A DNA stretch of 64,000 bases from Amphiscolops sp. MND2022 (Eukaryota), in contig OZ076409.1 of assembly GCA_964187785.1 (NCBI GenBank), positions 75,084,001 through 75,148,000 of the forward strand, in the 5' to 3' direction. Made by a program: the position numbers and the translations under genes. The notes under the pieces are model-generated. The model saw only the letters and a program-made list of their open reading frames with translations. It did no database searches and was not told where the DNA came from. Positions 1-64,000 of this stretch are shown in pieces (within the stretch, counting starts at the first letter, position 1; every line of letters begins with the position of its first letter).

Positions 1-645
1 AAACCTTGCAAACTGTCTCAGGAATGCTGTGTGAAATTTTCAGCTCAATCGGACCTAAACTCGGGGAGATATAGCGTTTTTCCGGAGCGGGGGGGTTTCA
101 TTTTTCTAACGGTCCAGCTTATCTTTGCCATTTTTTCGAAAATGCACTCGCCTAAAGGCCTCCCCTGGCCGGTTTTATTCCCAACAAAACCATTTGGCCC
201 TAAATACGGAGTTTCAGCGTTCCAGCATTCCCGGGCGAAAAGTTGTGGGACTTAGAAAAGTTCAAAAATTTTCAAAAAAAATTTTTCCGTTATTTGGGCC
301 CTCAAAGTGGGGGAAGAGACCCCCCAACCAGTAAAGCAAGTGAATGCATGTGGAAAGCCCTTGTTTAGACGAGAAAAATGCCGTTTAGAACGTCTTTTTA
401 TCTTAACTTGACATTGACTTTTGTCGTTTTGAAGGTGACCGTTAGATACGGAAAATTGATGTTTTGAGTATTTATCCCATCTGAAAGCCATTGAGATACA
501 ACATGTTTTGCTCAAAACGTGTTTCATTGCAGTTTCGCTGTCCATTATCACCCTTTGGTGTCTTTTCACGTAATTTTCGTTTCTATAATAACAATTTTTT
601 TGTGTATTTATTCATTTTTTTCTCATCAAATAACTTGAAACAGTT

Positions 646-689
646 GAGTACATTCCATCTCCCTTCCCGGGGGAGATGAGAATGTACTC
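646..689 (+). other. Long internal stem-loop of families A and C (representative copy)
   Basis: GAGTACATTC-CATCTCCC ... GGGAGATG-A-GAATGTACTC: ~18-bp stem with a 1-nt bulge; present in every complete A unit and, degenerate, in C. Confidence 0.9.
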
Positions 690-870
690 GCTAAAGGTCA
701 GGAACTACGGTCTTTATCTTCCACAACACAAAAGGGATTGCAAATGGTTTCAGTTTGTCGCAGAAAATTTCTTTTTGCCCTCTGTGACTCGACAAAATGA
801 ACGTTTCTTACTTACTTTGAAACTCAGCCTACCACAACTCATCTCTAACGTCAGCGCCCCCCTACTTGCA

Positions 871-920
871 TCAACGCCCACCGTCCGTGGGCATGCCGAG
901 GCATGCCCTTCGACGACGTA
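871..920 (+). repeat. Conserved subterminal palindromic box (first of 39 intact or near-intact copies, one per unit end except unit 5)
   Basis: TCAACGCCCACCGTCCGT-GGGCATGCC-GA-GGCATGCCC-TTCGACGACGTA; 9-bp inverted repeat at 889-908, extendable by CGTC/GACG. Confidence 0.95.
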
Positions 921-954
921 TACCAAGATATACCTGGAGCGCGGTAGCCGCTAG

Positions 955-2234
955 GTGGCCGTGTCTTTTCGACGTGCTTTTGCATTGAGGAGTGGGTAGG
1001 GCCCCGCGACGACCTAGAAGAATTGGATGCTCACCGAAACGTGCAGAATTCTACGAGATCTCATAGTTTGAGCCATACGATTTTTCTGAAATTTGGCATG
1101 TGGCCTGGAATTGGTGAGTAGGTAAAACGTGTAGGAGGTAATTTTTCCCAAATTCCATTGTGAGAGGAGATATGGGCAAATAACGGACCCAAAAATGGGG
1201 AAAATGCACTTTTTTCAAGTTTGTCAGCCAATATCTCATTTCCAGGTGCCCGTAGCGTTCCGCACGTGGACATCAATATTGCTCAGCGCTGTTAGAAGAG
1301 TGCGTGGACAAATTTTGGTTCAAATCGGACTGAAACTTGGCGAGAAATTAACGGTTTTTTGGGCGTTTCCGGGGTAAATTTTTTAACGGTCCAGCTTATC
1401 TTTGCCATTTTTTCGAAAATGTACTTGCCTAAAGGCCTCCCCCTGGCCGAATTTCCTCCCAGCAAACCCATTTGGCCCTAAATACGGAGTTTCAGCGTTC
1501 CAGCATTTCCGGGCGAAAAGTTGTGGGACTTAGAAAAATTTCAAAATTTTTCAAAAAATTTTTTTTCCGTTTTCCGCCCCCCCCAGAGGGGAAAAGACCC
1601 CCCAACCAGTATTTTGAGGGATTGCATGTCGAAAGCCCTTGTTTTGACGAGAAAAATACCGTTTAGAACATCTTTTTATTTTAACTTGACGTTGACTAAT
1701 GACGTTTTGAATGTGATGTTTGGACGTGTGAGGCATCTGAAAAGTTGATGTTTTGAGTCTTTATCTCATGTGAAAGCGATTGAGATGCAAGCTGTACTGC
1801 TCAAAACGTCTTTCGTTGTAGTTTTCCAGTGCCGCAATAACCTTTGATGTCATTTGAATATACTTTTCTTCGATATATTAACAATTTTATTGTATTTATT
1901 CCAATTTTTGTTATCTTATAACTCAAAACAGTTGAGTACATTTCATCTCCCTTTCGGGGGAGATGAGAATGTACTCGCTAAAAACCTAGTGCTATTGCGC
2001 CGCAATGATTGCAAAAGTTGTTTTTACTGCTGTTCCACAAGCATTTTTAAACTGACTTTTTTAAAACTATTAATTAACTTAAAGTACATTACTTGAACTT
2101 ACTACTAATACCACCTATCTCTAACGTCAACGCCCCCCTGCTTGCATCAACGCCCACCGTCCGTGGGCATGCCGAGGCATGCCCTTCGACGACGTATGCC
2201 AAATGCCCAGTGCCACGCAGTCTTTTCCCGCTAG
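955..2234 (+). mobile_element. Unit 2, family A subtype A2 (1280 bp)
   Basis: Starts GTGGCCGTGTCTTTTCG, ends TTTTCCCGCTAG; near-identical to unit 20. Confidence 0.7.
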
Positions 2235-3516
2235 GTGGCCGTGTCTTTTCGACGTGCTTTTGCATTGAGGAGTGGGTAGGGCCCCGCGACGACCTAGAAG
2301 AATTGGATGCTCACCGAAACGTGCAGAATTCTACGAGATCTCATAGTTTGAGCCATACGATTTTTCTGAAATTTGGCATGTGGCCTGGAATTGGTGAGTA
2401 GGTAAAACGTGTAAAAGGTAATTTTTCCCAAATTCCACTGTGAGAGGAGATATGGGCAAATAACGGACCCAAAAATGGCAAAAATGCACATTTTTCAACT
2501 TTGTCAGCCAATATCTCTTTTCCAGGTGCCCGTAGCGTTCCGCACGTGGACATCAATATTGCTCAGCGCTGTTGGAGGAGTGCGTGGACAAATTTTGGTT
2601 TAAATCGGACTTAAACTTGACGAGAAATTAACGGTTTTTTGGGCGTTTCCGGGGTAAATTTTTTAACGGTCCAGCTTATCTTTGCCATTTTTTCGAAAAT
2701 GTACATGCCTAAAGGCCTCCCCCTGGCCGAATTTACTCCCAGCAAACCCATTTGGCCCTAAATACGGAGTTTCAGCGTTCCAGCATTCCGGGGCGGAAAG
2801 TTGTGGGACTTGGAAAAATTTCAATTTTTTTTCAAAAATTTTTTTTCCCGTTTTCCGGGCCCCCAATGAAGGGGAACGACCCCCCAACCAGTATTTTGAG
2901 TGAATTCATGTGGAAAGCCCATGTTTGGAGGAGAAAAATGCCGTTTAGCACATCTTTTTATCTTAACTTGACATTGACTTATGACGTTTTGAATGTGATG
3001 TTAGGATATATGAAGCATGTTAAAAGTTGAAGTTTTGAGTCTTTATCTCATCGGAAAACCATTGAGATACAAGCAGTTTTGCTAAAAACGATTTTCATTG
3101 TAGGTTAGCAGAGTATTAGTACACTTTGATGTCATTTGAGTATATTTTTCTTCTATATAATAACTGTTTTTATGTATTTATTCCAATTTATCTCATCTTT
3201 TAACATCAAGCAGTTGAGTACATTTCATCTCCCTTTCGGGGGAGATGAGAATGTACTCGCTAAAAACCTAATGCTATGGCGCCAATGTTTGGATGGGAAG
3301 TTTTCTATGCTTTGAAAAAAGTTATTTTTAATTACTTGATTTTTTAAAACAATAATTAACATGAAGTACATTACTTGCTCCTACTACTACCACCATACAT
3401 CTCTAACGTCAACGCCCCCTGCTTGCATCAACGCCCCATCGTCCGTGGGCATGCCGAGGCATGCCCTTCGACGACGTATGCCAAATGCCCAGTGCCACGC
3501 AGTCTTTTCCCGCTAG
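2235..3516 (+). mobile_element. Unit 3, family A subtype A2 (1282 bp)
   Basis: Same head and terminal tip as unit 2, diverged 3' body. Confidence 0.7.
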
Positions 3517-4788
3517 GTGCCGGTGTATTTTTACACAATGGGGGATGTTGCGCGTGTGGGGAGGGTCCCTGACGCGCTTCCGTGGTTTCGGGTCTTCTAA
3601 CCTATGATAGCGTGACACCTGACTTCGATCTCGTAAACTAGCCGTACGATTTGGCTGAAATTTGGCACACGTACCCCCCTCGGCACGGTGAAGATGATTT
3701 CCTACTGACGTTTTTCCCGCTAAACATTTTTTGTTGACCAAAATAACGGTTTTTGGGGTAAAATTTTCAACTTTTTTTAAATTTCATCTTATATCTCGCC
3801 ACGGGTACACGCTAGCGCTTCCAAATCCTGCTGACGAAAGCTGGCAAACTGTCTGAGGAATGCTGTGTGAAATTTTCAGCTCAATCGGACTCAAACTCGG
3901 GGAGATATAGCGTTTTTCCGGAGCGGGGGGGTTTCATTTTTCTAACGGTCCAGCTTATCTTTGCCATTTTTTTGAAAATGCACTTGCCTAAAGGCCTCCC
4001 CTGGCCGGTTCTATTCCCAGCAAAACCATTTGGCCCTAAATACGGAGTTTCAGCGTTCCAGCATTCCCGGGCGAAAAGTTGTGGGACTTAGAAAAGTTCA
4101 AAAATTTTCAAAAAAATTTTTTCCGTTATTTGGGCCCTCAAAGTGGGGGAAAAGACCCCCCAACCAGTAAAGCAAGTGAATGCATGTGGAAAGCCCTTGT
4201 TTAGACGAGAAAAATGCCGTTTAGAACGTCTTTTTATCTTAACTTGACATTGACTTTTGTCGTTTTGAAGGTGACCGTTATATACGGAAAATTGAAGTTT
4301 TGAGTATTTATCCCATCTGAAAGCCATTGAGATACAACATGTTTTGCTCAAAACGTGTTTCATTGCAGTTTCGCTGTCCATTATCACCCTTTGGTGTCTT
4401 TTCACGTAATTTTCGTTTCTATAATAACAATTTTTTTGTGTATTTATTCATTTTTTTCTCATCAAATAACTTGAAACAGTTGAGTACATTCCATCTCCCT
4501 TCCCGGGGGAGATGAGAATGTACTCGCTAAAGGTCAGGAACTACGGTCTATATCTTCCACAACACAAAAGAGATTGCAAATGGTTTCAGTTTGTCGCAGA
4601 AAACTTCTTTTTGCACTCTGTGACTCGACAAAGTGAACGTTTCTTACTTACTTTGAATCTCACCATACCACAACTCATCTCTAACGTCAGCGCCCCCTAC
4701 TTGCATCAACGCCCACCGTCCGTGGGCATGCCGAGGCATGCCCTTCGACGACGTATAACAAAATATATTCGAACGCGGTAGCTGCTAG
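3517..4788 (+). mobile_element. Unit 4, family A subtype A1 (1272 bp)
   Basis: Starts GTGCCGG, body near-identical to unit 1, conserved box, ends GCGGTAGCTGCTAG. Confidence 0.7.
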
Positions 4789-5858
4789 GTGGTCAAGGGG
4801 GATGCCCATCAGAAAATATTGCGAGGCCGGGGAGGGTCCCGAGAGCCGAGCACATTCTATCAATTCCTACCTTCAGGATTGCGAAGTATTTTAACCGATC
4901 TCGAAATTCACCCGTAGGATTTGTCTGAAACTTTGCATGTGGCTTTATCTAAAAAATTTAAGAATTTTTTTCTTCTGACGTTTTTCCAGGAAAATTCATT
5001 TTGTAGGGTTTTTTTGCGTTTTTTTGGTTTTTTTCATCTTTTTTCATCTTTGATTAATCAATGACCGAATCAAAGGCCATTTCCACCATGAAGGAAAGCC
5101 CGTAGCGGCAAAGTGCACATTTATGAAAATCATCAACGGTCAACGGTCTTTCGAACGGTCCGAAAAAATTTTCCCCCGGGGGAAACCAAAGTGCCGAAAA
5201 GTGCCAAAATTATTTTTTTGACTGAATCACTTTGATCAAATTGATGATTTGAGCAGCCGGAACGGTCCGCACGGTCTCGGACAATAAGGTTAAAAATTGT
5301 CAGCATCCAATGGGGGTTCCAGAAATGTAATTCGTTCACCTGTAGGAGACATCAGAAAAAAGTTGATTTTTTGGGGTATATGTCATTATGAGTGATTGGA
5401 TGAGAAATAATTGTATCACTTTCAGTTGGATATGATGCAGCACAGGAAGCAGCTGCAGCAAACTTGAAACTGATTATGGGGCTGGGGTTTACCCTCTGTA
5501 TCGAGCAAAATAGCCCTAGGGCATAAGTTGTGCCAAAAAATGCCTCAAAGTGATGATTTGGTTATTGCAAATCGATCAGCAAAATTTATTGTCACCGGTG
5601 TTCCGAGAGTTGCGCAGCATCTCGCAGGAACAACGGTGCTTGCTTAGAAAGCAAAAAACCACAAAATCCCTTGAGTTAAGTTGACGGCAGTCACAATAGA
5701 CATTCACTCGTCAGGGTGATGATATTTATCGTTCAATCCCAGAATAACTTACAAAAAATTGCTAGCCTCAATATTTCTTTTTCATACTCCATTAGCAAAG
5801 GTTGCGCTGTTAAGTTTAGGCCTTTTACTAGCAGTGCTCTAAATCGCTCCATCGCTAG
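4789..5858 (+). mobile_element. Unit 5, singleton family E (1070 bp), lacks the GGGCATGCC box
   Basis: Bounded by CTAG|GTG on both sides; keeps the 5' motifs GGGGAGGGTCCC (4829-4840) and GATCTC...TGAAACTTTGCA; body otherwise unique. Confidence 0.65.
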
Positions 5859-7124
5859 GTGCCGGGATTTCCATTCGATAAGGAATTCTGCGCGTGTGGG
5901 TAGGGCCCCTGGCGCGCTCCTGTGTTTTCGGTTTTCCTACTCCTAAATAGGCCCCCTGAATTCCGGGATCTCCTAAACTATCCATACGATTTGGCTGAAA
6001 TTTGGCACACAGCCCCGTTGGAACATTGTAAGAACAAATCCCTACTGACGTTTTGCCCGCTAAACATTTTTTGTTGGTCAAAAATGCAATTTTCCGACAA
6101 AATTTTTGACTTTTTTTCAAGTTACAGTCTATATCTCGTCCCAGGGTTACGCTAGCGGTCCCAAACCCCAGTCGGAAAAGTTCGTAAACTGTCTCAGGAA
6201 TGCGGTGTCAAATTTTCAGGTCAATCGGACTTAAACTCAGCGACTTAGAGCGTTTTTTAGGTGCATTTTTTGACATTTTTTGCGTTTTTCGATTTATCTC
6301 TGCCGTTTTTTGCCCAGATTTTTTTTGAGACACTCTCCTAAAGACCTCCCCTGGCCGGTTTACCTCCCAGCAAAACCATTTGGCCCTAAATACGAAGTTT
6401 CAGCGTTCTAGCATTCCTGGGCGAAAAGTTGTGGGACTTAGAAAAATTTTTTGGGTACGCAAAATGTGTAAAGTCAACTTCAGGCCTCCCAAAGTCAAGA
6501 AACTTCCACACAACTAGTATTGCAAGTGAATGCATGTGGAAAGTACTCGGATAGACAAGAAAAATGAGCTATAGAACGACTCTGTAGCTCAACCTGACGT
6601 TGACTTATGATGTTTTGAATGTGTGCTTGCTAAGGGGTCCGAAACTGAAAATTTTTAAAGAAAATTAATATCGTCAAAAATTCATCGGAATGCCTGCAAT
6701 ATACAGTAGAGCGTGATCAATTGTAGCTGACTAATGCATCAACGCCGTTCAAGGTCTTTTAACTCAGTTTCAAATTTTTTTACACTGTATTATTCATCCG
6801 AGAGCACAAAACAGTTGAGTACATTCCATCTCCCCTCCGTGGGAGATGAGAATGTACTCGCTAAAGTCCAGGTGCTACAGCCCATATTTGTTTTTTTTGC
6901 GGCGCTATTTATGCTAGTGCGCACACGTATTAACTTTTTACCTGATTTTACTTTTGTCAGTACTTTTACTTTGACTTGACATATACTGAACATTATGTCC
7001 TTCTATCATACACATGACTAACGTCAACGCCCCATCCTTGCTTCAACGCCCACCGTCCGTGGGCATGCCGAGGCATGCCCTTCGACGACGTATGCCAAAG
7101 ATATTCCCGAGCGCGTTAGCCTAG
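5859..7124 (+). mobile_element. Unit 6, family A mosaic (1266 bp)
   Basis: A1-like 5' part (AAACTGTCTCAGGAATGC), 3' body like units 10, 11 and 22; box and CTAG end. Confidence 0.7.
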
Positions 7125-8397
7125 GTGGCCGCGTCTTTTAGATGGACTTTTAGCCCTGAGGCGCGGGTAGGGTCCTGCGCCGACCTGGTGAAAATATACT
7201 CCTGGCAAATGGCCCGAATCGGAGACGATCTCAAAACTGGCCCGTACGATTTTCCTGAAAATTTGCATGTGGCCCCCAATTGGCGAGCAATGAAAAAGTG
7301 TAGGAGGTCATTTTCTCCTGGTTTCATTGTGAGACGAGATATATGAAAAAAAATGACCCCAAAATGACGAAATTTTCACTTTTTGACCAAAAATGTGACA
7401 TTATCTCCTCAGACAAGGCTCGGAGCAAAATTTGTCAGAACCCAAACCTGCAGCAGACTGTTAGAGCAGTGCACACAGTAAGTTTGAAGGAAATCGGATA
7501 ATCACATGTGGAGAAATTGACGTTTTTCCGGCGAAATTTTTCGCAAATGCAGTCTATCTCTGCCGTTTTTTGCCCAAAATTTTTCCGAGACCCTCTCCTA
7601 AAGGCCTCCCCTGGCCCATTTTCCTCCCAAAAAAACCATTTGGCCCTAAATACGAGGTTTCAGTGTTGCAGCATTCCCCAGTGAAAAGTTATGGGACTTA
7701 GAACTTTTTCAAAAATTTTCAAAATTTTTCTAAAAAAGATCAGGCCGCCCAAAGTGAAGAAACTTCCACACAACTAGTATTGCAAGTGAATGCATGTGGA
7801 AAGCCCTGCACTTGACGAGAAAAATGCCGTTTAGAACGTCTTTTTATCTTAACTTGATGTTGACTTATGATCTTTTGAGTAGCGTATAACACGTGATCAC
7901 AGTAGTGAAAATCCTAATTTTCAATAATTTTCCAACAATAACGCATGAAAAAAACCTGGAAAAGGTTCCGATGGGTCAATTGGGATGTCTGAAGCATGTG
8001 TACATTCCCGTAGTGTATACTGGATGTATTTGGGACTTATTAGAAATTGTGATACATTTTATACAAGTCTTTGTTTCTCTTAGAATCTTATGCAGTTGAG
8101 TACATTGCATCTCCCTCTCAGGGGAGATGTGAATGTACGTTTGCCAAATGCCTTGTGAAGTGCACATGTTTGATGGACTTAACTAAGTAATCAAGTGTGA
8201 GTCGCGTTTGCCGCATCGCTACAGCAAAAAAAAACTAAAACTTTAGTCAGATTGAATGGTTTTTGTCGTTAGTGTTTCTTCTTGTATAGCCGACTTCCAC
8301 ATCCAATTATCAACGCCCACCGTCCGTAGGCATGCCGAGGCATGCCTTTCGACGACGTATGCCAAATACCCAATGCCACACAGTCTTTCCCCGCTAG
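7125..8397 (+). mobile_element. Unit 7, family A subtype A3 (1273 bp)
   Basis: Starts GTGGCCGCGTCTTTT; close relative of unit 35; box variant AGGCATGCC-GA-GGCATGCCT. Confidence 0.7.
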
Positions 8398-10384
8398 ATG
8401 GGCGGGGGTAATTCCCCTTCAAAAAATTCGGCCGGCGGGTTGGGTCCTGCCGGACGTCAAATAGTGTGAAACATCCAGTAGGAAACGGCGACATAAATCA
8501 GCGATTTTAAAATTTAACCGTTAGAATTCGGACTTGGAGTGCATGCGGCCCCAAAATTCCCATACGAATCGAAGTTCCTGCTGACGTTAAGCGATAAAAA
8601 CATTTTATAAAAAGTTATGGCCCATTTTACGTTCACCTATGAGGGTAAAATGAGGAAAATTTTTACAAAGTCGCTGATAACTCAAAATACATTGTTTTTT
8701 GGCTTTTGACTGTGAAACAAGCTTATAACCTTCATTTCGTGGCTGTGGCATTGCACTGAACACAAAAGATGTAAAGTTTTTACATTTTTCGAAAATTCGA
8801 CATTTTTGATTTTTTTTTCACTACTATCAGTACACTATATGTCAAAAACACCTCTGAAAAAGTTTTTTATTTGCTTTAAATTGGAAACCTTGGTATCCAT
8901 GGTTTCTGTCGGAATCTACTCGCTGCCAAACACCCAACAGTTTGCATCCAATGTGAATTTAAAATTTTTTTCGAGGTCATAAGGGTTTCACAAGGTTTTC
9001 ATAACATAGTATTAAACTACAAACTGGTCATTTTCAACATAATATCTTTGTCGAGGCATGTCGGATATAGTCCTATTGCTCACGAACGGTCCTACTGGCA
9101 ACGTAATAACCATTTATAGAAATGTAAAGTTATAAAAAAAATTTTTCACCCGGTCTTCAGTCATTTTTCAGTCATTCGGAACTTAACTTAGAAAAATTTC
9201 GACCAAAATATCCATTTTTTGTCAGGTCGAAAAATCAAATTCAGATTTTTAAGCAAAATTATTAACTCTGACGTAACCCATGGGGCTCATGATACTCAAA
9301 ACAACGATTGACACTGGTATCAATGGCTCCAATAACATATGAGTCGCGATAAGACGTTATTTTGAGCATTACGTCTCAATTGAGGTAAAGATCTCGCAAG
9401 CCAGCGATCACTGTGAAATGTAATTTCATCAAAAATTTACTCTTTTTTGTCAATCACTATGTGCACAGAATGCGTAGGGTGCGTTTCAGCACTATAATGA
9501 GGTTTTTGAAGGCATCGAGTTGCTCAAGGGGTGGTATGAGACACTTTTGTCCCATATACTACTGTATTTTCCAAAATTTTTAGCCCAATATCTGGAAATA
9601 CAAACTTGACAAAATACTTTCAACTACTTTATTCAAAGGTTACAATATAGATGAACACTGTGGTTGATCAGAAACTTTCATCTCTTTCGTTTTCCGAAAT
9701 ATTTCCCTTCGCATGTGTTACATTCGTAGCAGAAAAAAAAATCGAAACTGAAAAATACGCAATTTTGCTAATATAGAATCGCAATGATTGTGCCTAAAAA
9801 CTCTTTAAACACTTCTAACGCAACCTTACGCACCCAAAATGATCGAAAATGCTATTCACAATGGTGACATGTGCTCTTTCTACGATCCTGGCTGGACAAG
9901 GTTTGCATATTTTTCAAGTACCTGTCAGCTAAATCTTGTGATAGCCTTTTCAGTTGGCCTTGTGTCAACTTGGGAAGGCTATCACATCAAAAAACCATCA
10001 ACAAAAATAATTTTTGTTTATTGGATCTTACAGTCGATACTTTTTTTCGTGATTCTATACTACCGTTAGTAAATTTCCTCAGGTCACCTTACGATTGCAT
10101 TCAGTCTTTGATAAAAACCTCTGAACTCAAAGTCACATTTTTATATTTTTTTGCCAAAAAATAACATCAAAAATATCTAAAATATATAAAATAGAGTCTT
10201 TAACATTTTTACGTTTCAAGTTTTTGCCGTTATTAGGTCAATCAACGTCCTAGAGCCACGCTCTCTGTCATACTGTACAACGCCACATAGTGTTTCGACG
10301 TTCACAGTCTGTGGGCATGCCGAGGCATGCCCTTCGACGACGTATGCCGAATACCGCGGGCCTACGCCCGCGCTCCCCGGCTAG
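8398..10384 (+). mobile_element. Unit 8, singleton family F (1987 bp)
   Basis: Starts ATGGGCG (only non-GTG start); unique AT-rich body; conserved box, then perfect hairpin CGCGGGC-CTAC-GCCCGCG (10355-10372) 12 nt before the end of the terminal CTAG. Confidence 0.7.
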
Positions 10385-13300
10385 GTGGTCAGTGCTGTTG
10401 CGTTCATTTTTTTCCGGCCGTGGGGGAGGGCCCCTCTGAGGCCGGTCATTTTTCAGGTAACAGCTTTCCTATACAAAAAAGGGGGAAAAAACCTCAGTGC
10501 TCAAATCCCAACCGTCAGAATGAGCTGAAATTTGGCATGTAGCTAGTGCATTGCAAATGATTAGGATGGGTTATAACGCTATGTTTGGCAAAATTGGTTT
10601 TGTTGCATTTTTTTTGTCATATAGGGCCAAAAATGGCCTTTTTTGCGTATTTTTTGCTTGACTAGCTAATAACTCGCGTTGGGTTGGTACTAGCGATACG
10701 GGTGTGGGGTATGGAATTGTAAGAATACCAAGTACCTTGCTGATCACGTTATTTGATTTCCGCCCACATCACCCCCCACGCCGGAAATGCCCAATTTGTC
10801 ACTACCGGTCGCAATTTTTGACTTTTTTGGATGGAGTCAAAACCCATTTCCGGTGTGAAGGAGTGGGTTGAGCGCTTCGACCCCAATATACTAAAAGTAG
10901 GTTTAGACAAAGTCCTATTAGGAAAAAAGTAATGTAAGCCCGTACCTATCACCCCCTCACCGGAAATAGGGGTCACGCCTCCTTTTTCTGTGTTGCAAAA
11001 GTGGCATGTGCACATTTGTCCAACTCCGAAGCCCCGGAGCACTGTGGGACCCTCATACTTTCTAAACACCTATCCCACACGCTACCGGAAGTGACCGGAA
11101 GTTTCACCGGAAATGACATCCTTGGACCGGAAATGGTCAAAAAAGGACTTTTTCAATAAAAAATAGACACTTTTGGTGCAATTTTTAGGCAAAAAGCATA
11201 ATTCGTGATACGCTTGTTGCAGTTGAAAGGGCCATTGTTCAGCAAGAATGCATACAGCATTACGTAGCACATCAAGTGGTTGATAATTTTTCGTCCATAA
11301 TATCCATAGGACCGGAAATGGCCATTTTTGAATCGGAAATTTCTTCAGCTTGATTTTTAACAAGTTTTTCCACAATATTAGTGTAGGAATTGCTCGTCGG
11401 ATGCTTTAGGTCTATTTTAAAACTAGCTGACTGCTTCTTAGAAATGTATTTCAGAAATCCCAACCAATTCCAGATTACCGGAAATGGGAGTAATTGCCTC
11501 CTTTATGACCTTTGAATGATAAATTGTTAAAATCCGCAAATTATTTTATTCCACAACTGTTGCTCAGGTTATATCTAAGCAATAACATCTGCTTGTTTTG
11601 AAGTGCTGTATTGTGGGAGATACAAATATTGCTTTTTAATAGTAATACATACGTGATATTCGCCGCAAAAAAGATTTTTCAAATCAACCATTTTGAAGTC
11701 CTACTGGTGTTCCGCACACCCGAAATAATTTAAGTTTCTAGTTTCGATTTTCAGGCTTCCGCGACTATTGAGTTGAGATGATAGTTTTCACGTTCTCTGC
11801 AAAACGGGCATTTCATTGTGTATGTGACATTTATTGGGTTGTTTCACATGGTAATTCAAAACTAATTGATCATACAATTTAGAACAATTGAAAATTTTCA
11901 ATTGAACAATAAATGTTTTAATATTTTCTCTTTCGTTAAAGATACTCTTTTGTGGCCATTAGAACAGGTTGAATTGGTTGAATAAGTAACCAGTGCGATA
12001 CATCGTTTAATACATAGCGTTTGACATCGTTTTCTTGCGAACAAAGACAAGCATGATTTGTTGGAAGTTTTTACCATATCGCTTCAAATCGGTCGTGACA
12101 AACAATGAATTTCTCGTTTTAATTGCTACTTCGAAAGCAGCCTGAAAACGCAAATCGATCTATTGAGTTATGGAGATGCAACTAAGCATTTCAAGTCTGG
12201 GTTTCAATTTAATTCTATCACTCCGGACTATTTTTATGTCGCAAAAGTGATAAAGGGTGTTAGCAAGGTTAAAAACATCGAACAATTTTAAAAAATTAAT
12301 GCCTCCGGAAAGGGAAGAAAAATGAGTTTTCCTGTCAAAACAATGACAACCACGTACGAAACATCAAGTATTTGTATTGTTCAATAGTCCAAAACATTAA
12401 TGAAGTTTTTAAATATCCAAGAGTTTCTAATCAAGCATGCGTTTCGAATGTCTCACAGGGCAGCATCGTTTTCAAAAAACAGTGCTTTCAATGTGGTTTC
12501 ATACCAGCAAAACGAACGCAGGCACAACCACATTCTCAAAATTCTTGCACAACAACCAATTTCTTTGAAAATCCTATTTGATTCCTCAAGGTATATGGTG
12601 AGAACCCTGTTGGGTTCCAAAGTTGATGTGCTGTTTTCTTGGGTTTGCGAGATAAGTTACAACGGAAATCTGAAAGCAGGTCGTCTCAATAAAATACCTG
12701 TTGCTCTTTAAACGATTGGACTTAAGTAGTCGAAATTTATTCTCAGACACTTTCGATCAGAGAATGTTTGAGTCCTAACGTTCGAATCAGGTTGGTTTCA
12801 GGTGGCTCGAAGTGCCAGCTGAACCAACCTTTCAAATAAAGAAAAACCCCACACCTCCCTTCATGCCACGCTACCCCGTATAGCGTTTCAACTTGACAGA
12901 AATTGGAACGTTTGATTTTGGCGTCGCTTGGGATTGACACACCAGTGTTGATACTAAATTTGGCAAAGAGAAATCGCAGAAATGATTGTTTCTGTTTTTC
13001 CCTTTGATTTAGTGTGTCGAGCGTACAAAGCAGTTTGGGAAACTAACTTGCATTTCCACTGAACGAAAAGCAAAAGTAGTAACATTGAAAACTTCCGGAA
13101 TAAATTTAATCAGGTTTCCGTATTTGTGAGATCAGCTGCCACTCAGTTATCAGTTACATCTTTCAAATTTTTAAGAACAACTAATCTAACTTTGCTCGAC
13201 TCTCTTGGATAAGGCAACAATAGTTTACTAATCTGTACTCGTGGAAAAAAGTCAACTGCCGGGTGAAAAACAATCTGTATGTAACTTTTCTCTCGTGCAA

Positions 13301-13458
13301 AGTTATTTTTTACCCCCTCTGACTCAACTATAGCATGTACGTAATGAAACCAATAACACCTTCAACTGTTAATCAACGCCCACCGTCCGTAGGCATGCCG
13401 AGGCATGCCTTTCGACGACGCGCGCCAAAAACAATATAACGGCGCCACCCGCTTCTGG
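10385..13458 (+). mobile_element. Unit 9, family D (3074 bp)
   Basis: Starts GTGGTCAGTGCTG, ends GCTTCTGG; full-length homology to units 30 and 31. Confidence 0.7.
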
Positions 13459-14762
13459 GTGGCCACGACCATGGTTTCTTGCGTATCTTGTCGAATCTTT
13501 TGTCGTTGCCGGCCGGGGAGGGACCCGTTTGCCGGCGTGTGTAGTGTGGGGCCCCCATACCCAAAAAGTGGTATTTTTTTCAGAGATCTCAAAATCGGCC
13601 CGTCAGAATTGCCTGAAATTTGGCATGATGCTCCCAATTGGGGAAAAAATAAGAAGTGTAGGAGGCGACTTGTTCGGGTAAATATTGTATGTTGACTTTT
13701 GGCCAAAATAGTGTTCCCCCCCAACATGGGCAAAATCACATGAGGTGTAAAAATATGATCACAACTTTTGAACCTTTGGATTTAGGGGTACGGTCGTGGA
13801 CCACATTAAGCAAGAGCTTTGGTGAGCGGGTAGGATAGATGGGTTTTGATCCCAGTACCTTCAACCACTTTTGAGAAATTAACGTTTCAAACAAACATCC
13901 GGGAGGTATCTGTTGCCCCTGAAGGCAGGTTTTTCGCCATTTTCAATGTGAAGGAGTGGGTTTAGCGTAACGTGTGTGGGGTGCTTTTTTGTTGCCCGTG
14001 TGCGGAGCGTTGTATAGAGGTGCTGGTTGTTGAAATTGGAAAAGCTGCTAAAAAGTTATACCTATACCCCCCCTACTGTCTCTGCCATTCAATTTTTTTT
14101 TCAACTTCAGGCCTCCCAAAGGTGAGAAACTTCCACACAACTAGTATTGCAAGTGAATGCATGTGGAAAGTACTCGGATAGACGAGAAAAATGAGCTATA
14201 GAACGACTCTGTAGCTTAACCTGACGTTGACTTATGACATTTTGAGTGTGAGCTTGCTACGAGAGAAAAAAATTTAAAATTGAAAATCGAAGCTAAGTCT
14301 CATCCAAAACTCATCGAAATACGTTCAATCCATACCAAAGCGGTCAAACTCCAGCTATATAGTGCAACAACACTATTCAAGACCATTTGACACAATTTTA
14401 TTAGTTTTGACATTGTATTATTCATCCGAGAGCACAAAACAGTTGGGTACATTCCATCTCCCTTTCGGGGGAGATGAGAATGTACCCGCTAAATGACACG
14501 CACCATGGCCTAATTTTTACCTTTATGCGACGTTTTCTAGGCTTTCGCGCAAGCCCACTAATATTTAGACTGGTTTCTTTTTCTTTCACTCCAAACATTC
14601 CGTCCGTACTAACCACCTTACACACCACCAGCAGCTCAACGACACATCTGTAACGTCAACGCCACATACTCGCATCAACGCCCACCGTCCGTGGGCATGC
14701 CGAGGCATGCCCTTCGACGACGTATGCCCGTTGTCACAACAGGGCGCCCCTACATTCTCTAG
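13459..14762 (+). mobile_element. Unit 10, family A mosaic with unique 5' half (1304 bp)
   Basis: Starts GTGGCCACGACC; 3' half like unit 11; terminal hairpin GCCCGTTGT-C-ACAACAGGGC before CTAG. Confidence 0.7.
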
Positions 14763-16043
14763 GTGCCGGGATTTTCTATTCGATAAAGTAAGTTGCGCGG
14801 TTGGGTAGGGCCCCGTGAGCGCGCCCGTGTCTGTGTTTTTTGAACCTGAATTTGCGGGTGCCAAAATAGACGATCTCCTAAACTATCCATACGATTTTGC
14901 TCAAATTTGGCATACGGGTTCCTGAGACAGATATAAGAACTAATTCCTACTGGCGTTTTGCCCGGAAAATTTTTTTTGTTGCGCAAACTTGAAATTTTTG
15001 ACAAAAAAATGCGATTTTTTTTGAAAAAATTTTTTTGAGAGGCCATATCTTTTTTCAGGGAGCCCGGAGCGGGACGCGTTAAACTGATTATAAACTCTAC
15101 GGTTCACGGGCTGTACGGGGAACCTATTTTTGTTGGAATCCGACTTGTAGATTTTGAGATATATTATCAAATTTGGGTGTTTTTTTTCCAATTTTTCGAA
15201 AAACCTGGTTTATCTCTGCCGTTTTTTGCCCAGATTTTTTTCTAGACCCTCTCCTAAAGGCCTCCCCTGGCCGGATTACGTCCCAGCAAAACCATTTGGC
15301 CCTAAATACGAAGTTTCAGCGTTCTAGCATTCTCGGGCGAAAAGTTGTGGGACTTAGAAAATTTTTTTTTAAAACGCAAAATGTGTAAAGTCAACTTCAG
15401 GCCTCCCAAAGTCAAGGAACTTCCACACAACTAGGATTGCAAGTGGATGCATGTGGAAAGTGCTTGAATAGACGAGGAAAATGAGCTATTATAAAACTCT
15501 GTAGCTTAACCTGACGTTGACTTATGACAATTTTAGTGTGAGCTTGCTATGTGAGAAAAAATTTCAAAAATTGAAAATCGAAGCTAAGTCTCATCCAAAA
15601 CTCATCGGAATACGTTCAATCCATTCCAAAGCGGTTTACTTCCAGCTATAGACTGCAGCAACACTATTCAAGACCATTGTACCCCTTTATATTAGTTTTG
15701 ACATTGTATTATTCATCCGAGAGCACAAAGCAGTTGAGTACATTCCATCTCCCTTTCGGGGGAGATGAGAATGTACTCGCTAAAGAACAGGTACTACAGC
15801 CAATTTTTGTATTTATGCGAAGCCATTCTTTGCTATTGCACATAACAACTATGCTATTGACTTAATTTTGCCTACACTTTGCTATGACATATGCTAAACG
15901 TTTGGTCCTTACAACAACATACACATGACTAACGTCAACACCACATACTGTTACCAACGCCCACCGTCCGTGGGCATGCCGAGGCATGCCCTTCGACGAC
16001 GTATGCCAAATACCTTCCAGCGACGCTCGCGCTCCCCGGCTAG
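14763..16043 (+). mobile_element. Unit 11, family A mosaic (1281 bp)
   Basis: Middle module CCCGGAGCGGGACGCGTTAAACTG shared with unit 16; body like unit 6; ends CGCGCTCCCCGGCTAG like unit 8. Confidence 0.7.
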
Positions 16044-21177: not shown

Positions 21178-22491
21178 GTGCCCGGATTTCTATTCATTAA
21201 AGTATGTTGCGCGTGTGGGTAGGGCCCCTGGCGCGCTCTTGTGTCCCTGTTCTCATAACTGCAATTTCCGGCAGCATTCTGAGCGATTTTCTAAACTATC
21301 CATACGATTCGGCTGAAATTTGGCATGTGAGTTCCTATGACAGTTCTAAGAAACATTTCCTACTGGCGTTTTGCCCGGAAAATTTTTTTTGTTGACTTAT
21401 AACGGTTTTTTTGGCCAAAAAATGCAATTTTTTCAAAAATTTTTTTTTCGGAGCCCATATCTTTTTTCAGGGTGCCCGGAGCGGGACGCGTTAAACTGAT
21501 TATAAACTCTACGGTTCATGGGCTTTACGGAGAACCTAGGCTCGTTTCGATCAGACAAATAGTCTTGGAGATATAACGGCATTTTTTGGGAATTTTTTGA
21601 AAATTTTTCTAACGGTCCAGCTTATCTTTGCCATTTTTTCGAAAATGTACTCGCCTAAAGACCTCCCCTGGCCGGTTTTAATCCCAGCAAAACCATTTGG
21701 CCCTAAATACGGAGTTTCAGCGTTCCAGCATTCCCGGGCGAAAAGTTGTGGGACTTAGAAAAATTTCAAAATTTTTCAAAAAAATTTTTTCCGTTTTCCG
21801 CCCTCCCCCCGAGGGGAAAAGACCCCCCAACCAGTAATTTGAGTGAATTCATGTGGAAAGGCCATGTTTAGAGAAGAAAAATGCCGTTTAGATCGTCTTT
21901 TTATTTTAACCTGTCGTTGACTTATGTTGTTTTGAAGGTGATGTTTGGATGTGTGAAGCATGTGAAAAGGTAATTTATTGTGTCTTTAGCTCTTCTAAAA
22001 GTCATTGAGATACACGGTGTGTGACTCAGAACGTGTTTAATTCTAATTTAGCAATGCATCAACACTTTTTTGTGTCTTTTGACTCTGTTTTAAAAAATTT
22101 TTCCGACTAAAATCAAAAATTATTTATAATTATTCACATTTTTTTTCTGATCTCATGACTCGAAACAGTTGAGTACATTCCATCTCCCTTCACGGGGGAG
22201 ATGAGAATGTACTCTTTAGAGACCAGGTACTACAGTAATTACCTTCCCCGAGCAACGCCCCATAAAAATTGCGTTTTGATCCAGATATTTTGACATAATT
22301 TTATCTTTGTAATTTGACTGGAAATGAAGAAAATGCCGCACGTGCTCTTTTATATCAAGTATCTTAACAACGCCATCTCTTTTACGTCAACGCCCCATAG
22401 TTCACATCAACGCCCACCGTCTGTGGGCATGCCGAGGCATGCCCTTCGACGACGTATGCCCAAGATATACATCGAGCGCGGTAGCCGCTAG
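21178..22491 (+). mobile_element. Unit 16, family A mosaic (1314 bp)
   Basis: Head as in units 36 and 38, middle as in unit 11, then A1-type body. Confidence 0.7.
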
Positions 22492-49600: not shown

Positions 49601-49718
49601 GTAATGAAACCAATAACACCTTCAACTGTTAATCAACGCCCACCGTCCGTAGGCATGCCGAGGCATGCCTTTCGACGACGCGCGCCAAAAACAATATAAC
49701 GGCGCCACCCACTTCTGG
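46649..49718 (+). mobile_element. Unit 31, family D (3070 bp)
   Basis: Full-length homology to units 9 and 30; CTGG end. Confidence 0.7.
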
Positions 49719-59302: not shown

Positions 59303-60589
59303 GTGCCCGGATTTCTATTCATTAAAGTATGTTGCGCGTGTGGGTAGGGCCCCTGGCGCGCTCTTGTGTCCCTGTTCTCATAACTGCAATTTCCGGCAGC
59401 ATTCTGAGCGATTTTCTGAACTATCCATACGATTCGGCTGAAATTTGGCACACGTACTCCCCTCGGCACGGTGAAGATGATTTCCTACTGACGTTTTTCC
59501 CGCAAAATTTTTTTTGTTGTCCAAAATAACGGTTTTTGGGGTAAAATTTTGAACTTTTTTTAAATTTCATCTTATATCTCGCCACGGGTTTACGCTAGCG
59601 CTTCAAAACCCTGCTAAAGAAAGCTTGCAAACTGTCTCAGGAATGCGGTGTGAAATTTTCAGCTCAATCGGACTTAAACTCAGGGAGATATAGCGTTTTT
59701 CCGGAGCGGGGGGGTTTCATTTTTCTAACGGTCCAGCTTATCTTAGCCATTTTTTCGAAAATGTACTCGCCTAAAGACCTCCCCTGGCCGGTTTTATTCC
59801 CAGCAAAACCATTTGGCCCTAAATACGGAGTTTCAGCGTTCCAGCATTCCCGGGCGAAAAGTTGTGGGACTTAGAAAATTTCAAAAATTTTCAAAAAATT
59901 TTTTTTCCGTTTTCCGCCCTCCCCCCCTAGGGGAAAAGACCCCCCAACCAGTAATTTGAGTGAATTCATGTGGAAAGGCCATGTTTAGAGGAGAAAAATC
60001 CCGTTTAAATCGTCTTTTTATCTTTATTCAACGTTGACTTATGACGTTTTGAAGGTGATGTTTGGAGGTGTGAAGCACGTGAAAAGTAAACGTTATGAGT
60101 ATTTATCTGATCTGAAAGCCATTGAGATGCAACCTGTTTTGCTCAAAACGTAATTCATATCAGTTTGGTAGTCAATCAACACCCTTTGTTGTCATTTGAC
60201 ATCTTTTTTTGTTGATATAAGAAAAAATTTCGTGTATTTATTCATTTTTTTATCATCAAATAACTTGAAACAGTTGAGTACATTCCATCCCCCCTTCACG
60301 GGGGAGATGAGAATGTACTCGCAAAAAGCCCCGAACTACGGCCCTTACCTTCCTGAGCTACGCAGTATAAAGATTGCATATTGGTTCCGACATTTTGATA
60401 GAGTTATATCTTGGTAATCTGTCTGGGTATGCAGAAAAACCAGCACGTGCTTTTTTATACCAAGTTGCTCACAACGACATTTATTTTATATCAACGCCCC
60501 CATATTTATCAACGCCCCCCGTCCGTGGGCATGCCGAGGCATGCCCTTCGACGACGTATACCAAGATATGTTCGAGCGCGTTAGCCTAG
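59303..60589 (+). mobile_element. Unit 38, family A subtype A1 (1287 bp)
   Basis: Head as in units 16 and 36, body as in unit 15. Confidence 0.7.
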
Positions 60590-61878
60590 GTGCCGGGATT
60601 TCTATTCGTTCGAGTATGTGGCGCGTGTGGGTAGGGCCCCTGGCGCGCTCTTGTGTTTGGGGGTTTCCTACTTCTAAATCACGTTCAGATTTCCGGGATC
60701 TCGTAAACTATCCATACGATTTGGCTGAAATTTGGCACACGTACCCCCCTCGGCACGGTGAAGATGATTTCCTACTGACGTTTTTCCCGCTAAACATTTT
60801 TTGTTGACCAAAATAACGGTTTTTGGTGGAAAATTTTTGATTTTTTTTAAATTTTATCTTATATCTCGCCACGGGTCCACGCTAGCGCTTCCAAACCTTG
60901 CTGACGAAACCTCGCAAACTGTCTCAGGAATGCTGTGTGAAATTTTCAGCTCAATCGGACTTAAACTCGGGGAGATATAGCGTTTTTCCGGAGCGGGGGG
61001 GTTTCATTTTTCTAACGGTCCAGCTTATCTTTGCCATTTTTTCGAAAATGCACTCGCCTAAAGGCCTCCCCTGGCCGGTTTTACTACCAAAAAAACCATT
61101 TGGCCCTAAATACGGAGTTTCAGCGTTCTAGCATTCCGGGGCGAAAAGTTGTGGTACTTAGTAAATTTCAAAAATTTTCAAAAATTTTTTTTTCGTTATT
61201 TGGGCCCCCAAAGTGGGGAAAAGACCCCCCAACCAGTAATTTGAGTGAATTCATGTGGAAAGGCCATGTTTAGCGGCGAAAAATGCTTTTTAGATCGTCT
61301 TTTTATTTTAACCTGTTGTTGACTTATGTTGTTTTGAAGGTGATGTTTGGATGTGTGAAGCATGTGAAAAGGTAATTTTTTGTGTCTTTATCTCTTCTAA
61401 AAGCCATTGAGATGCAATCTGTTTTGCTCAAAACGTAATTCAATGCAATTTGGCAGTCAATGAACACAATTTGGTGTCTTATGTTATATTTTTCTGTTGA
61501 TATAATAAAAAATTTTGTGTCTTTATTAATTTTTTTTAAATAAAATAACTTGAAACAGTTGAGTACATTCCATCCCCCCCTTCCGGGGGAGATGGAAATG
61601 TACTCGCTAAAAGCCGCGAACAAGAGCCCATACCTTCCTGCGCTACGCAGTATAAAGATTGCATGTTGGTTCCGACTTTTTGGTAGTGTTATATCTTGGT
61701 AATTTGACTGAATATGGAGAAAAATCAGCAAGTGCTCTTTTATAGCAAATTGCTGACAACGACAATTTTTTTATATCAACGCCCCCATATTTATCAACGC
61801 CCCCCGTCCGTGGGCATGCCGAGGCATGCCCTTCGACGACGTATACCAAGATATACTCCCGAGCGCGGTAGCCGCTAG
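60590..61878 (+). mobile_element. Unit 39, family A subtype A1 (1289 bp)
   Basis: Near-identical to unit 13. Confidence 0.7.
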
Positions 61879-63165
61879 GTGCCGGGATTTCTATTCATTA
61901 AAGTATGTTGCGCGTGTGGGTAGGGCCCCTGGCGCGCTCTTTTATTTCGGGTACACCTACTCCAAATTCACGATGTGATTTCGACGATCTCGTAAACTAG
62001 CCACACGATTTGGCTGAAATTTGGCACACGTACCCCCCTCGGCACGGTGAAGATGATTTCCTACTGACGTTTTTCCCGCTAAACATTTTTTGTTGACCAA
62101 AATAACGGTTTTTGGGGTAAAATTTTCAACTTTTTTTAAATTTCATCTTATATCTCGCCGCGGGTACACGCTAGCGCTTCCAAACCTTGCTGACGAAAGT
62201 TTGCAAACTGTCTCAGGAATGCTGTGTGAAATTTTCAGCTCAATCGGACTCAAACTCAGGGAGATATAGCGTTTTTCCGGAGCGGGGGGGTTTCATTTTT
62301 CTAACGGTCCAGCTTATCTTAGCCATTTTTTCGAAAATGTACTCGCCTAAAGACCTCCCCTGGCCGGTTTTATTCCCAGAAAAACCATTTGGCCCTAAAT
62401 ACGGAGTTTCAGCGTTCCAGCATTCCCGGGCGAAAAGTTGTGGGACTTAGAAAAGTTCAAAAATTTTCAAAAAAAATTTTTTCCGTTATTTGGGCCCCCA
62501 AAGTGGGGGAAAAGACCCCCCAAACAGTAAGGCAAGTGAATGCATGTGCAAAGCCCTTGTTTAGAGGAGAAAAATGCCGTTTAGAACGTCTTTTTATCTT
62601 GGCTCAACGTTGACTTATGACGTTTTGAAGGTGATGTTTGGAGGTGTAAAGCACGTGAATAGTAAACGTTATGAGTATTTATCTGATCTGAAAGCCATTG
62701 AGATGCAATATGGTTTGCTCAAAACGTAATTCATGGCAGTTTGGCAATCAATCAACACCCTTTGTTGTCGTTTGACATACTTTTTTGTTGTTATAATAAA
62801 AAATTTTGTGTATTTATTCATTTTTTTCTCATCAAATAACTTGAAACAGTTGAGTACATTCCATCCCCCCCTTCCGGGGGAGATGAGAATGTACTCGCAA
62901 AAAGCACTGAACTACGGCCCTTACCTTCCCGAGCTACGCAGTATAAGGATTACATATTGGTTCCGACATTTTCATAGAGTTAAATCTTGGTAATCTGTCT
63001 GGATATGCAGAAAAACCAGCACGTGCTTTTTTATACCAAGTTGCTCACAACGACATTTATTTTATATCAACGCCCCCATATTTATCAACGCCCCCCGTCC
63101 GTGGGCATGCCGAGGCATGCCCTTCGACGACGTATACCAAAATATGTTCGAGCGCGTTAGCCTAG
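61879..63165 (+). mobile_element. Unit 40, family A subtype A1 (1287 bp)
   Basis: A1 body, hairpin, box, ends GCCTAG. Confidence 0.7.
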
Positions 63166-64000
63166 GTGCCGGGATTTCTATTCGATAAAGTATGTTGCGC
63201 GTGTGGGTAGGGTCCCTGGCGCGCTCTTGGGTATGGTGTTCACCAGCTAGGAAATAGGGGTCGATTTTTCGGGATCTCCTAAACTAGCCACACGATTTGG
63301 CTGAAATTTGGCACACGTACCCCCCTCGGCATGGTGAAGATGATTCCCTACTAGCGTTTTGCTCGCAAAATTTTTTTTGTTGTCCAAAATAACGGTTTTT
63401 GGGGGAAAATTTTGAATTTTTTTTAAATTTTATCTTATATCTCGCCAACGGTTTACGCTAGCGCTTCAAAACCCTGCTAAAGAAAGCTTGCAAACTGTCT
63501 CAGGAATGCGGTGTGAAATTTTCAGCTCAATCGGACTCAAACTCGGGGAGATATAGCGTTTTTCCGGAGCGGGGGGGTTTCATTTTTCTAACGGTCCAGC
63601 TTATCTTTGCCATTTTTTCGAAAATGCACTCGCCTAAAGGCCTCCCCTGGCCGGTTTTATTCCCAGCAAAACCATTTGGCCCTAAATACGGAGTTTCAGC
63701 GTTCCAGCATTCCCGGGCGAAAAGTTGTGGGACTTAGAAAAGTTCAAAAATTTTCAAAAAATTTTTTTTCCGTTTTCCGCCCTCCCCCCCTAGGGGAAAA
63801 GACCCCCCAACCAGTAATTTGAGTGAATTCATGTGGAAAGGCCTTGTTTAGAGGAGAAAAATGCCGTTTAGAACGTCTTTTTATCTTGGCTCAACGTTGA
63901 TTTATGACGTTTTGAAGGTGATGTTTGGAGGTGTAAAGCACGTGAATAGTAAACGTTATGAGTATTTATCTGATCTGAAAGCCATTGAGATGAATATGGT
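63166..64000 (+). mobile_element. Unit 41, family A subtype A1 (cut by window end)
   Basis: Head and body like units 12 and 37. Confidence 0.7.

Follow-up and report, generated by a model that had tools for sequence, protein, structure and literature searches.

What process sets dozens of unlike, kilobase-sized DNA units end to end, in one orientation and joined at a single precise site? We addressed this question at positions 75,084,001–75,148,000 of C1 (contig OZ076409.1, plus strand) in a eukaryotic genome of 1.07 Gb; this 64-kb stretch is hereafter called the window. Its units are short members of a group of Helitron-like elements whose long members encode a Rep protein fused to a helicase (RepHel). 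We propose, at a probability of about 0.7, that this uncharacterised group prefers its own end-to-start junctions as a target, and that each insertion regenerates the target and so builds mixed arrays.

The window is a head-to-tail array of whole units

The window contained 41 plus-strand matches to the junction pattern CTRG|RTG (the bar marks the join), 40 of which were true junctions; the match at window position 8020 was rejected as a chance site inside a unit. Unit order and junctions were taken from the assembly sequence alone. The 40 junctions delimit 39 complete and 2 partial units, in agreement with the 41 co-oriented units of a preliminary description of this DNA. The reverse strand had four pattern matches, and a self-BLAST of the window returned no minus-strand match (E ≤ 1e-10). 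Complete units were 1,070–3,074 bp long and joined end to start without spacers, and none of the 41 was nested inside another, as had been claimed. Single-linkage clustering sorted the 39 complete units into 16 families at an identity threshold of 80% and into 20 at 90%, more than the earlier count of at least six families at 1.07–3.07 kb. Units of one family differed by 0–20%, each with private mutations.

A palindromic box lay near the 3' end of 38 of the 39 complete units. The unit at 4789–5858 lacks it, so the claim that all units share terminal signals stands for the common junction and not for the box; box-less families were common in other arrays of the genome. Placing the true junction inside the box was considered and rejected, since tails track the upstream unit and heads track the downstream unit. 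The short units of the window carried no genes, and the longest stop-to-stop frame was 148 aa. The array had been called non-coding; this holds for the window and fails just outside it, where a coding unit of 12,226 bp lies 14.6 kb to the right. Tandem Repeats Finder reported short internal repeats only.

Box-bearing ends adjoin other elements

Across the genome, box-bearing ends numbered at most 4,909, and RTGS came next in 4,664 of them. Because the count of 4,909 includes double matches, the resulting 95% is a minimum for ends whose box is intact. That existing junctions are preferred, as the preliminary description had supposed, agrees with these ends adjoining another element, and a tabulation of the flanks of box copies placed most of them in arrays and not in solo insertions. 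Sites that fit a short target rule, CTDG^DT, occurred about 3.4 times per kb, an estimated 3.7 million genome-wide. Such a rule alone does not account for the arrays. In a contiguous 154 kb (30 kb left of the window, the window, and 60 kb right of it), 93 units tiled 153,300 bp with neither N bases nor recognised foreign insertions. None of the 500 non-junction CTDG^DT sites in this stretch (181 plus-strand, 319 minus-strand) was interrupted, a figure to be read together with the unit tiling.

Long units with the same ends encode a Rep-helicase

In the array at C1:24.0 Mb, a 15-kb gap between boxes contained a unit of 13,675 bp with CTAG|GTG at both ends and an open reading frame (ORF) of 2,373 aa. 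Pfam recognised Helitron_like_N and PIF1 in this ORF, and a C-terminal GIY-YIG domain below the curated cut-off. A long unit with the same ends and an HUH Rep/helicase had been anticipated, and this unit is one; autonomous RepHel elements with shared ends also lend weight to the idea that the short units are rolling-circle modules mobilised in trans. Five autonomous elements were caught with both ends (12,226–15,581 bp). The nearest to the window, at C1:75,162,576–75,174,801, is 12,226 bp long and has an open RepHel frame of 2,349 aa; a junction pattern at C1:75,167,405 was rejected because it lies inside this ORF. An array junction adjoined 15 of the 17 autonomous copies whose flanks were examined.

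A genome search with the Rep region, in which 138 of 430 candidates were scored so that counts are lower bounds, gave at least 142 matches. At least 35 of these lay in C1:70.5–76.5 Mb, all on the plus strand, and 28 were in open frames of at least 2,200 aa. The HUH histidines and both tyrosines were invariant in 12 of 12 diverse families, and the sole Foldseek match of the Rep-region model at E ≤ 0.001 was the Helitron transposase 7LCC. The autonomous families within arrays were about 30–45% alike in protein and included intact elements.

The features of the window, in which f-numbers denote families, are as follows (window coordinates).

1..64000, plus strand: array segment of head-to-tail Helitron-like elements, 39 complete and 2 partial non-autonomous units
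872..918, plus: example of the conserved 3' box (central palindrome), about 35–80 bp from the 3' end of the unit; present 39 times in the window
951..957, plus: example of a CTAG|GTG junction, 3' end of one unit and 5' start of the next; putative nick and target site
985..1012, plus: example of the 5' subterminal hairpin, a variable stem closed by a loop of conserved sequence (T/G/C)AGGG, about 40 bp from the unit start
1..954, plus: partial unit of f2, the commonest family (1.27–1.31 kb)
955..3516, plus: two f9 units; the first has a 99.7% copy at 26582–27860 with other neighbours
3517..4788, plus: f2 unit; more f2 at 16044–21177 (four units), 22492–23803 and 56730–63165 (five units)
4789..5858, plus: f10 unit of 1,070 bp; box-less family using the same junction
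5859..7124, plus: f7 unit
7125..8397, plus: f11 unit, also at 55458–56729; 92% identity over the first 757 bp and 97% over the last 87 bp with a 15,581-bp autonomous element (L102/L103)
8398..10384, plus: f12 unit of 1,987 bp, starting with ATG, not GTG
10385..13458, plus: f13 unit of 3,074 bp, also at 43577–49718 (two units); 97% identity over the first 907 bp and 94% over the last 86 bp with a 14,083-bp autonomous element (L100/L101)
13459..16043, plus: one f14 and one f4 unit
21178..22491, plus: f3 unit; 96% identity over the first 876 bp with the 12,226-bp autonomous element that lies to the right of the window
23804..26581, plus: two f0 units of 1.39 kb; also at 34259–35646, 37830–39218 and 54083–55457
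27861..29531, plus: f0-type unit with a 282-bp internal tandem duplication
29532..30803, plus: f16 unit; 96% identity over the first 961 bp with a 15,001-bp autonomous element (L104/L105)
30804..32080, plus: f5 unit
32081..34258, plus: f17 unit of 2,178 bp; 99.9–100% copies at 41399–43576 and 51905–54082, each with different neighbours; related unit at 39219–41398
35647..37829, plus: f6 unit, also at 49719–51904
63166..64000, plus: partial f2 unit that leaves the window

Families f3, f11, f13 and f16 each matched a different autonomous element at 92–97% over the first 757–961 bp and had the 3' box in common with it. Judged by sequence, the short window units are non-autonomous partners of the 12–15.6-kb autonomous elements, since they have the 5' 0.75–0.96 kb and the 3' ends in common with them and no coding capacity. 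We also noted that L100–L105 and the 12,226-bp element, whose Rep is only about 33–41% identical to the reference Rep, resemble the same short units at both ends, the 3' box being nearly identical and the 5' regions homologous in part. This suggests that ends have been exchanged between element families.

An integron-like cassette system, with a site-specific recombinase acting on the box or junction, would account for the precision of the one junction, for the palindromes at unit ends and for the shuffling of units. What the long units with these ends encode is nevertheless RepHel, and Pfam and fold searches found no recombinase in their three ORFs (no genome-wide search for recombinase families was made). 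The short units are moreover gene-free and amplified to thousands of copies. We thus consider an integron-like system highly improbable, and the integron/CRISPR analogy drawn earlier is not supported as a mechanism.

The GIY-YIG domain was present in 16 of 19 sampled relatives, and its Tyr, Gly, Arg and His-Asn positions were conserved in 17 of 19 inspected. It weakly resembled SLX1 and UPF0213 (E 0.03–0.6) and was degenerate in some array-resident families. A second ORF, with about 320 conserved residues and a Cys cluster, was found in 15 of 17 autonomous loci (L051:5177–6133, L026, L041 and 12 more) and in 8 of 29 metagenome loci (L130, L133, L136, L140, L142, L145, L150 and L151). Its structural model (predicted local distance difference test score, pLDDT, 78) resembles the tandem OB folds of RPA/CST, with a best Foldseek E of 1.5e-4 and a VIA-align Z of up to 7.9, under 8; the predicted product resembles an RPA-like OB-fold protein separate from RepHel. 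Some autonomous families also have a third ORF of about 220 aa (L026:7362–8027, L051:3359–4015, L052:860–1576 and L097:7025–7681), one of which has motifs reminiscent of an SGNH/GDSL hydrolase; its match to DUF459 was weak. No Pfam match exceeded the cut-off in the second ORF, the third ORF or the N-terminal 855 aa of RepHel.

Solitary copies point to a CTNG target

Across array loci, 243 junctions were called by pattern, which makes the precision figures partly circular. All 243 joins were base-precise. The unit start was GTG at 241 of them and in most full-length solitary copies (solos), and the unit 3' end was CTAG at 221, CTGG at 19 and CTTG at 3. The 5' hairpin, about 40 bp into the unit, has a stem that varies by family and an AGGG loop that is kept; the loop A was unpaired in 57 of 62 distinct heads. 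Its mean folding free energy was −8.4 kcal/mol, compared with −5.0 for shuffled flanks and −6.0 for swapped arms. Box-less families had no strong 3' hairpin. A hairpin spanning the junction was considered and found to be inconsistent across families.

For 14 solos both ends were located. Their left flank was CTTG in six, CTAG in three, CTCG in two, CTGG in one and another sequence in two, with a final G in 13 and CTNG in 12. Two array starts were preceded by CTAG and CTGG, and the second base after a non-array 3' end was T in 23 of 28 cases. The elements thus sit 3' of a target CTNG, mostly before (G/A/T)T; a cut one base earlier could also be compatible, the G being common to both sides. No target-site duplication was seen in the 14 solos, and in L031, L033 and L122 the element ends in a tetranucleotide other than the CTTG on its left. 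Together with the base-precise joins, these duplication-free solos uphold the claim of one precise junction site without target duplication. An older, more diverged family of 1.35–1.4 kb with the same ends (L030, L032, L109, L114, L118, L119 and L120) occurred in our sample only as dispersed solos. The solo at L034:5615–6870 breaks a long reading frame, presumably of long terminal repeat (LTR)-retrotransposon type by its motifs.

Three 5'-truncated, 3'-intact pieces (96, 78 and 32 bp) lay directly after CTAG. Such pieces would fit, without proving, self-targeting by target-primed synthesis. Here, GIY-YIG would nick the bottom strand at a junction, and the freed 3' end would copy the displaced element strand from the CTAG end to the 5' end. 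The geometry is that of LINE and Penelope insertion, with a DNA template instead. The presence of GIY-YIG in most sampled relatives, its conserved key positions and its weak likeness to SLX1 and UPF0213 also speak for this scheme. However, HUH 3'-end transfer with a broken 5' end yields the same pieces, and 3'-truncated copies escaped counting because the search for solos started from 3' ends. Rep moreover keeps both of its tyrosines, and GIY-YIG is degenerate in some array-resident families. We regard target-primed synthesis as a minor contender, somewhat less likely than the satellite-like growth considered next.

Units appear to have moved mostly singly, with a minority of crossover

Under satellite-like growth, insertion would follow the CTNG rule only. 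A few tandems, arisen by chance or by rolling-circle copying, would then grow and be reordered through unequal crossover, gene conversion and block read-through, and dispersed copies would be purged. Rolling-circle concatemers are reported to give rise to tandem Helitron arrays (cited in the available parts of PMC5876387 and PMC5148889). However, crossover moves blocks and breaks within homology, yet near-identical units mostly differed in both neighbours, and did so at junctions. In the 154 kb, both neighbours differed in 30 of 34 pairs at least 98% identical, and across all array loci both sides differed in 95 of 114 near-identical pairs; breakpoints lay mostly at junctions and were not scattered, in line with the earlier expectation. 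Units 99.7–99.8% identical occurred at C1:73.02, C1:75.28 and C7:16.18 Mb, on different chromosomes and with different neighbours. Adjacent same-family units were no more alike than distant ones (0.879 versus 0.875), and recent local tandem duplication was rejected as the source of same-family runs. The presence in arrays of intact autonomous elements from families so unlike in protein also argues against this explanation. There was no sign of growth from one end: near-identical copies were spread over C1:70.9–75.9 Mb and other contigs, although no full age map was made.

Several observations weigh against junction preference, and some of them favour satellite-like growth. One or both 250-bp flanks were in common for 19 of the 114 near-identical pairs, against a sharing background of 1.5–2.3% per side and with some of the 19 forced by locus choice. 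One two-unit duplication with a chimeric unit, together with 2 mosaics among 48 testable units, indicates crossover inside units. Same-family neighbours numbered 27 of 92, compared with 13.6 ± 2.7 in shuffles, an excess that random junction use does not predict; family make-up also differs by region. The flank counts of solos are biased, the solos having been chosen by their 3' end (20 of 28 by a non-G next base), and 2 of the 14 solos still lack CTNG. Two of the 17 autonomous copies (L096/L097 and L106/L107) had no recognised junction in 20 kb, and the Rep model was mediocre (pLDDT 60). Lastly, the preference is inferred from copy positions, and selection against dispersed copies could inflate it. 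On balance, we consider satellite-like growth unlikely. The interpretation in the preliminary description nevertheless holds in part only: the array also has coding units, and a minority of its structure derives from duplication or crossover inside units.

The two exceptional autonomous loci, L096/L097 (C3:3.157–3.177 Mb) and L106/L107 (C1041), contain related RepHel elements. At L096/L097 a 220-aa ORF was repeated 15.4 kb apart, a hint of tandem units with other ends. More intact RepHel clusters, on both strands, lay at C2:102–104 Mb and C3:2.4–3.9 Mb.

For the preferred reading, insertion at existing junctions, we postulate the following mechanism. RepHel would copy one unit from GTG to CTAG, comparable to TC to CTAG in Helraiser, and the intermediate would probably be a circle closed at CTAG|GTG. 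Helraiser forms circles with precise junctions of right and left terminal sequences (RTS–LTS), which are cleaved in vitro (PMC5876387), and inserts at AT without local clustering (PMC5876387, PMC4778049), according to the available parts of these sources. In the present elements, the target tetranucleotide would be the element's own end, following the logic of IS91. A chromosomal junction offers a perfect target tetranucleotide and both terminal hairpins, and so would resemble the site that the enzyme binds on its own circle; for this reason RepHel might engage a junction far more often than a bare CTNG. Insertion at a junction would spare both neighbours and turn one junction into two. Rare solo insertions would seed arrays, which would then take up most new copies of many families because each insertion doubles its target. 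Unequal crossover and block copying would supply a minority of the structure. The part played by GIY-YIG may be second-strand cleavage or flap trimming, and some of the junction enrichment may stem from selection against dispersed copies.

The elements probably form a third group beside sampled HLE1 and HLE2

Helitrons are classed as Helitron-like element (HLE) types HLE1 or HLE2 and are taken to have dinucleotide target preferences only. By gene content and ends, the present elements belong to the Helitron superfamily: an HUH-Y2 Rep is fused to a superfamily 1B (SF1B)/PIF1 helicase, there is no duplication, and termini are common to autonomous and non-autonomous members (four family pairs). 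In the available part of the HELIANO report, HLE1 is defined by TC...CTRR and A^T, and HLE2 by inverted repeats, T^T and DUF6570 (PMC11417382). With HLE1 and Helraiser the present elements have in common the HUH-Y2 Rep and PIF1 helicase, a 3' CTRR end with subterminal palindrome, the lack of duplication, non-autonomous derivatives and an RPA-like passenger gene. Unlike HLE1, they start with GTG and not TC, sit 3' of CTNG and not between A and T, have a 5' hairpin and a C-terminal GIY-YIG, and form their own branch in the Rep, helicase and joint trees; mixed arrays hold at least 95% of their box-bearing ends. They differ from HLE2 (Helentron, Helitron2, proto-Helentron) in lacking DUF6570 and T^T insertion, in having GIY-YIG and not AP endonuclease, and in their separate branch from the HLE2-like proteins sampled here. 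The self-BLAST gave no sign of HLE2-type subterminal inverted repeats, although repeats of 12–17 bp would escape its threshold and no dedicated search was made.

A Rep-region profile retrieved 405 cluster representatives at E ≤ 1e-30; with a threshold of 1e-10 the number rose to 916, of which the best 150 were considered, and weaker ones may include other Helitrons. One of ten relatives looked up was from hagfish. Relatives also occurred in metagenomes (29 contig loci of 1–21 kb, too short to show arrays), and two scans of viral contigs found none. DUF6570 was absent from the query ORF and from all 19 inspected relatives; the genome had 42 DUF6570 matches, none in C1:70–77 Mb. Ordinary HLE1-like and DUF6570-bearing HLE2-like Helitrons were scattered in the same genome (L157–L201).

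Trees were built from 67 proteins (30 of this group, 19 HLE2-like and 18 HLE1-like), a 69-protein subset minus two without a Walker A match. As references we used neighbours of two Helitrons of the same genome; their labels come from search origin and Pfam and not from curated families. In the Rep, helicase and joint trees the three sets fell on their own sides of branches, with Shimodaira–Hasegawa-like approximate likelihood ratio test (SH-aLRT) values of 100/99/100 (IQ-TREE, joint alignment). The group was separate from the 18 HLE1-like proteins with an SH-aLRT of 100 (unrooted, limited reference set), and outside the 19 HLE2-like proteins with 99, the HLE2 sample coming from one query and possibly missing subgroups. 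In a 98-row FastTree analysis the new group had a support of 92, and HLE2 was split by one mis-cut row. The trees are unrooted, and FastTree warned of long branches meeting. RepHel is probably a third group apart from sampled HLE1 and HLE2, and the elements a third Helitron group with self-targeted array building. The unclassified HLEs of HELIANO, given in the available part of that report as 19 genomes with at least four extra clusters (PMC11417382), might include them.

Two distinct elements among distant metagenome relatives (start of L150/L151 and L138:55–100) have a similar AGGG-loop hairpin upstream of RepHel. The contigs L136 (position 197) and L137 (position 1414), 99.8% identical, diverge immediately upstream of CTGG-GTAG / CTAG-GTAG. 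Both observations are suggestive only.

Mixed head-to-tail order is also known from retrotransposons: HeT-A, TART and TAHRE form mixed, co-oriented head-to-tail arrays at Drosophila chromosome ends, whereas the present units are DNA elements in internal arrays. Integrons and CRISPR arrays are alike in that variable units occupy one recurring site. Unlike them, the present arrays have no integrase seen, no cassette genes, and no leader or polarity found, and their units are selfish and amplified. IS91 targets CTTG, GTTC and CTCG, which resemble its terminal cleavage site (ter site CTCG), according to the available part of PMC13181058. Likeness to IS91, judged by description, extends to HUH-Y2 rolling-circle movement, an orientation-specific target tetranucleotide like the own end, no duplication and palindromes at both ends; IS91 also forms junction circles. 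IS91 is, however, prokaryotic and without fused helicase, and the same part of PMC13181058 reports no long mixed arrays. Replitrons have a Y1 Rep without helicase and short terminal direct repeats (available part of PMC10288648), whereas the present enzyme is a Y2 RepHel. Tandem or centromeric Helitrons of plants, bats and Meloidogyne also show head-to-tail junctions, and their autonomous and non-autonomous copies occur in clusters (PMC5876387, PMC5148889, PMC13404089). As far as the available parts of these sources go, those arrays are HLE1-type concatemers, partial copies or satellite-interleaved, whereas here at least 16 families of whole units are joined without spacers. Neither a GIY-YIG RepHel group nor mixed arrays built by junction targeting came up in our literature search; its scope left out Repbase, subscription papers and supplements, and prior naming is possible. 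The available parts of a centromere atlas (10.64898/2026.09.17.752431) and of PMC4588551 held nothing bearing on these arrays.

The locus suggests that there is a third RepHel group, widespread and with a target rule like that of IS91, and thus a testable link between bacterial and eukaryotic rolling-circle elements. It also points to a route by which mixed mobile elements, with no satellite monomer, could form megabase tandem domains. The elements look young, given identical copies and dozens of intact frames, and are therefore candidates for naturally active Helitron-type transposases. A junction-preferring HUH enzyme would be of interest to genome engineers; if junction homing is real, it would be a natural duplication-free, site-preferring integrase for cargo of 1–15 kb. 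A bolder joint reading, which we offer tentatively and with the odds against it, combines several of these points. It would have a third major branch with RepHel-GIY-YIG and an OB-fold protein, widespread in eukaryotes, with true single-base junction homing and possibly a second-strand cut by GIY-YIG. Its families would swap ends and build safe harbours of megabase size that might serve the host as a chromosomal domain, for example a centromere or a small-RNA cluster.

Arrays recur across the genome

On C1, array sequence was found on the plus strand in every sample taken between 70.55 and 76.0 Mb; this span of about 5.5 Mb is sampled, and continuity was shown for 154 kb only. A 3' end at C1:76.005 Mb was followed by non-head sequence, related RepHel matches continued to C1:76.46 Mb, and a sample at C1:76.52 Mb had no array sequence. 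Further arrays lay at C1:3.5, 24.0, 29.5 and 38.0 Mb and on C2, C5, C6, C7, C8, C10 and C1179. An exact 29-mer of the box had 4,733 genomic copies, compared with none for a reversed control.

An assembly or amplification artefact could be suspected, as the order rests on the assembly and other loci (L025 and L106/L107) show two N gaps and a strand flip. Such an origin is scarcely credible, given that same-family units carry private mutations, that joins are base-precise at all called junctions (with the circularity noted above) and that arrays lie on several contigs. Solos moreover follow the same target rule. Chimeric amplification would not produce this set of features. The strand flip, in a locus with 200 N (L025, C1:23.977–23.980 Mb) and with near-identical units on both sides, is probably an assembly join.

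Arrays were split into regions by dominant class, namely 1.05-kb box-less, 1.3-kb box and 2-kb box units (C1:3.48–3.64, 23.96–24.02, 37.9–38.15 and 72.2–72.5 Mb), in an order not common between arrays. Lastly, at C1:75,198,060–75,204,551 (L044) we noted a non-coding unit of 6,492 bp with internal repeats of about 900 bp and normal junctions at its bounds.

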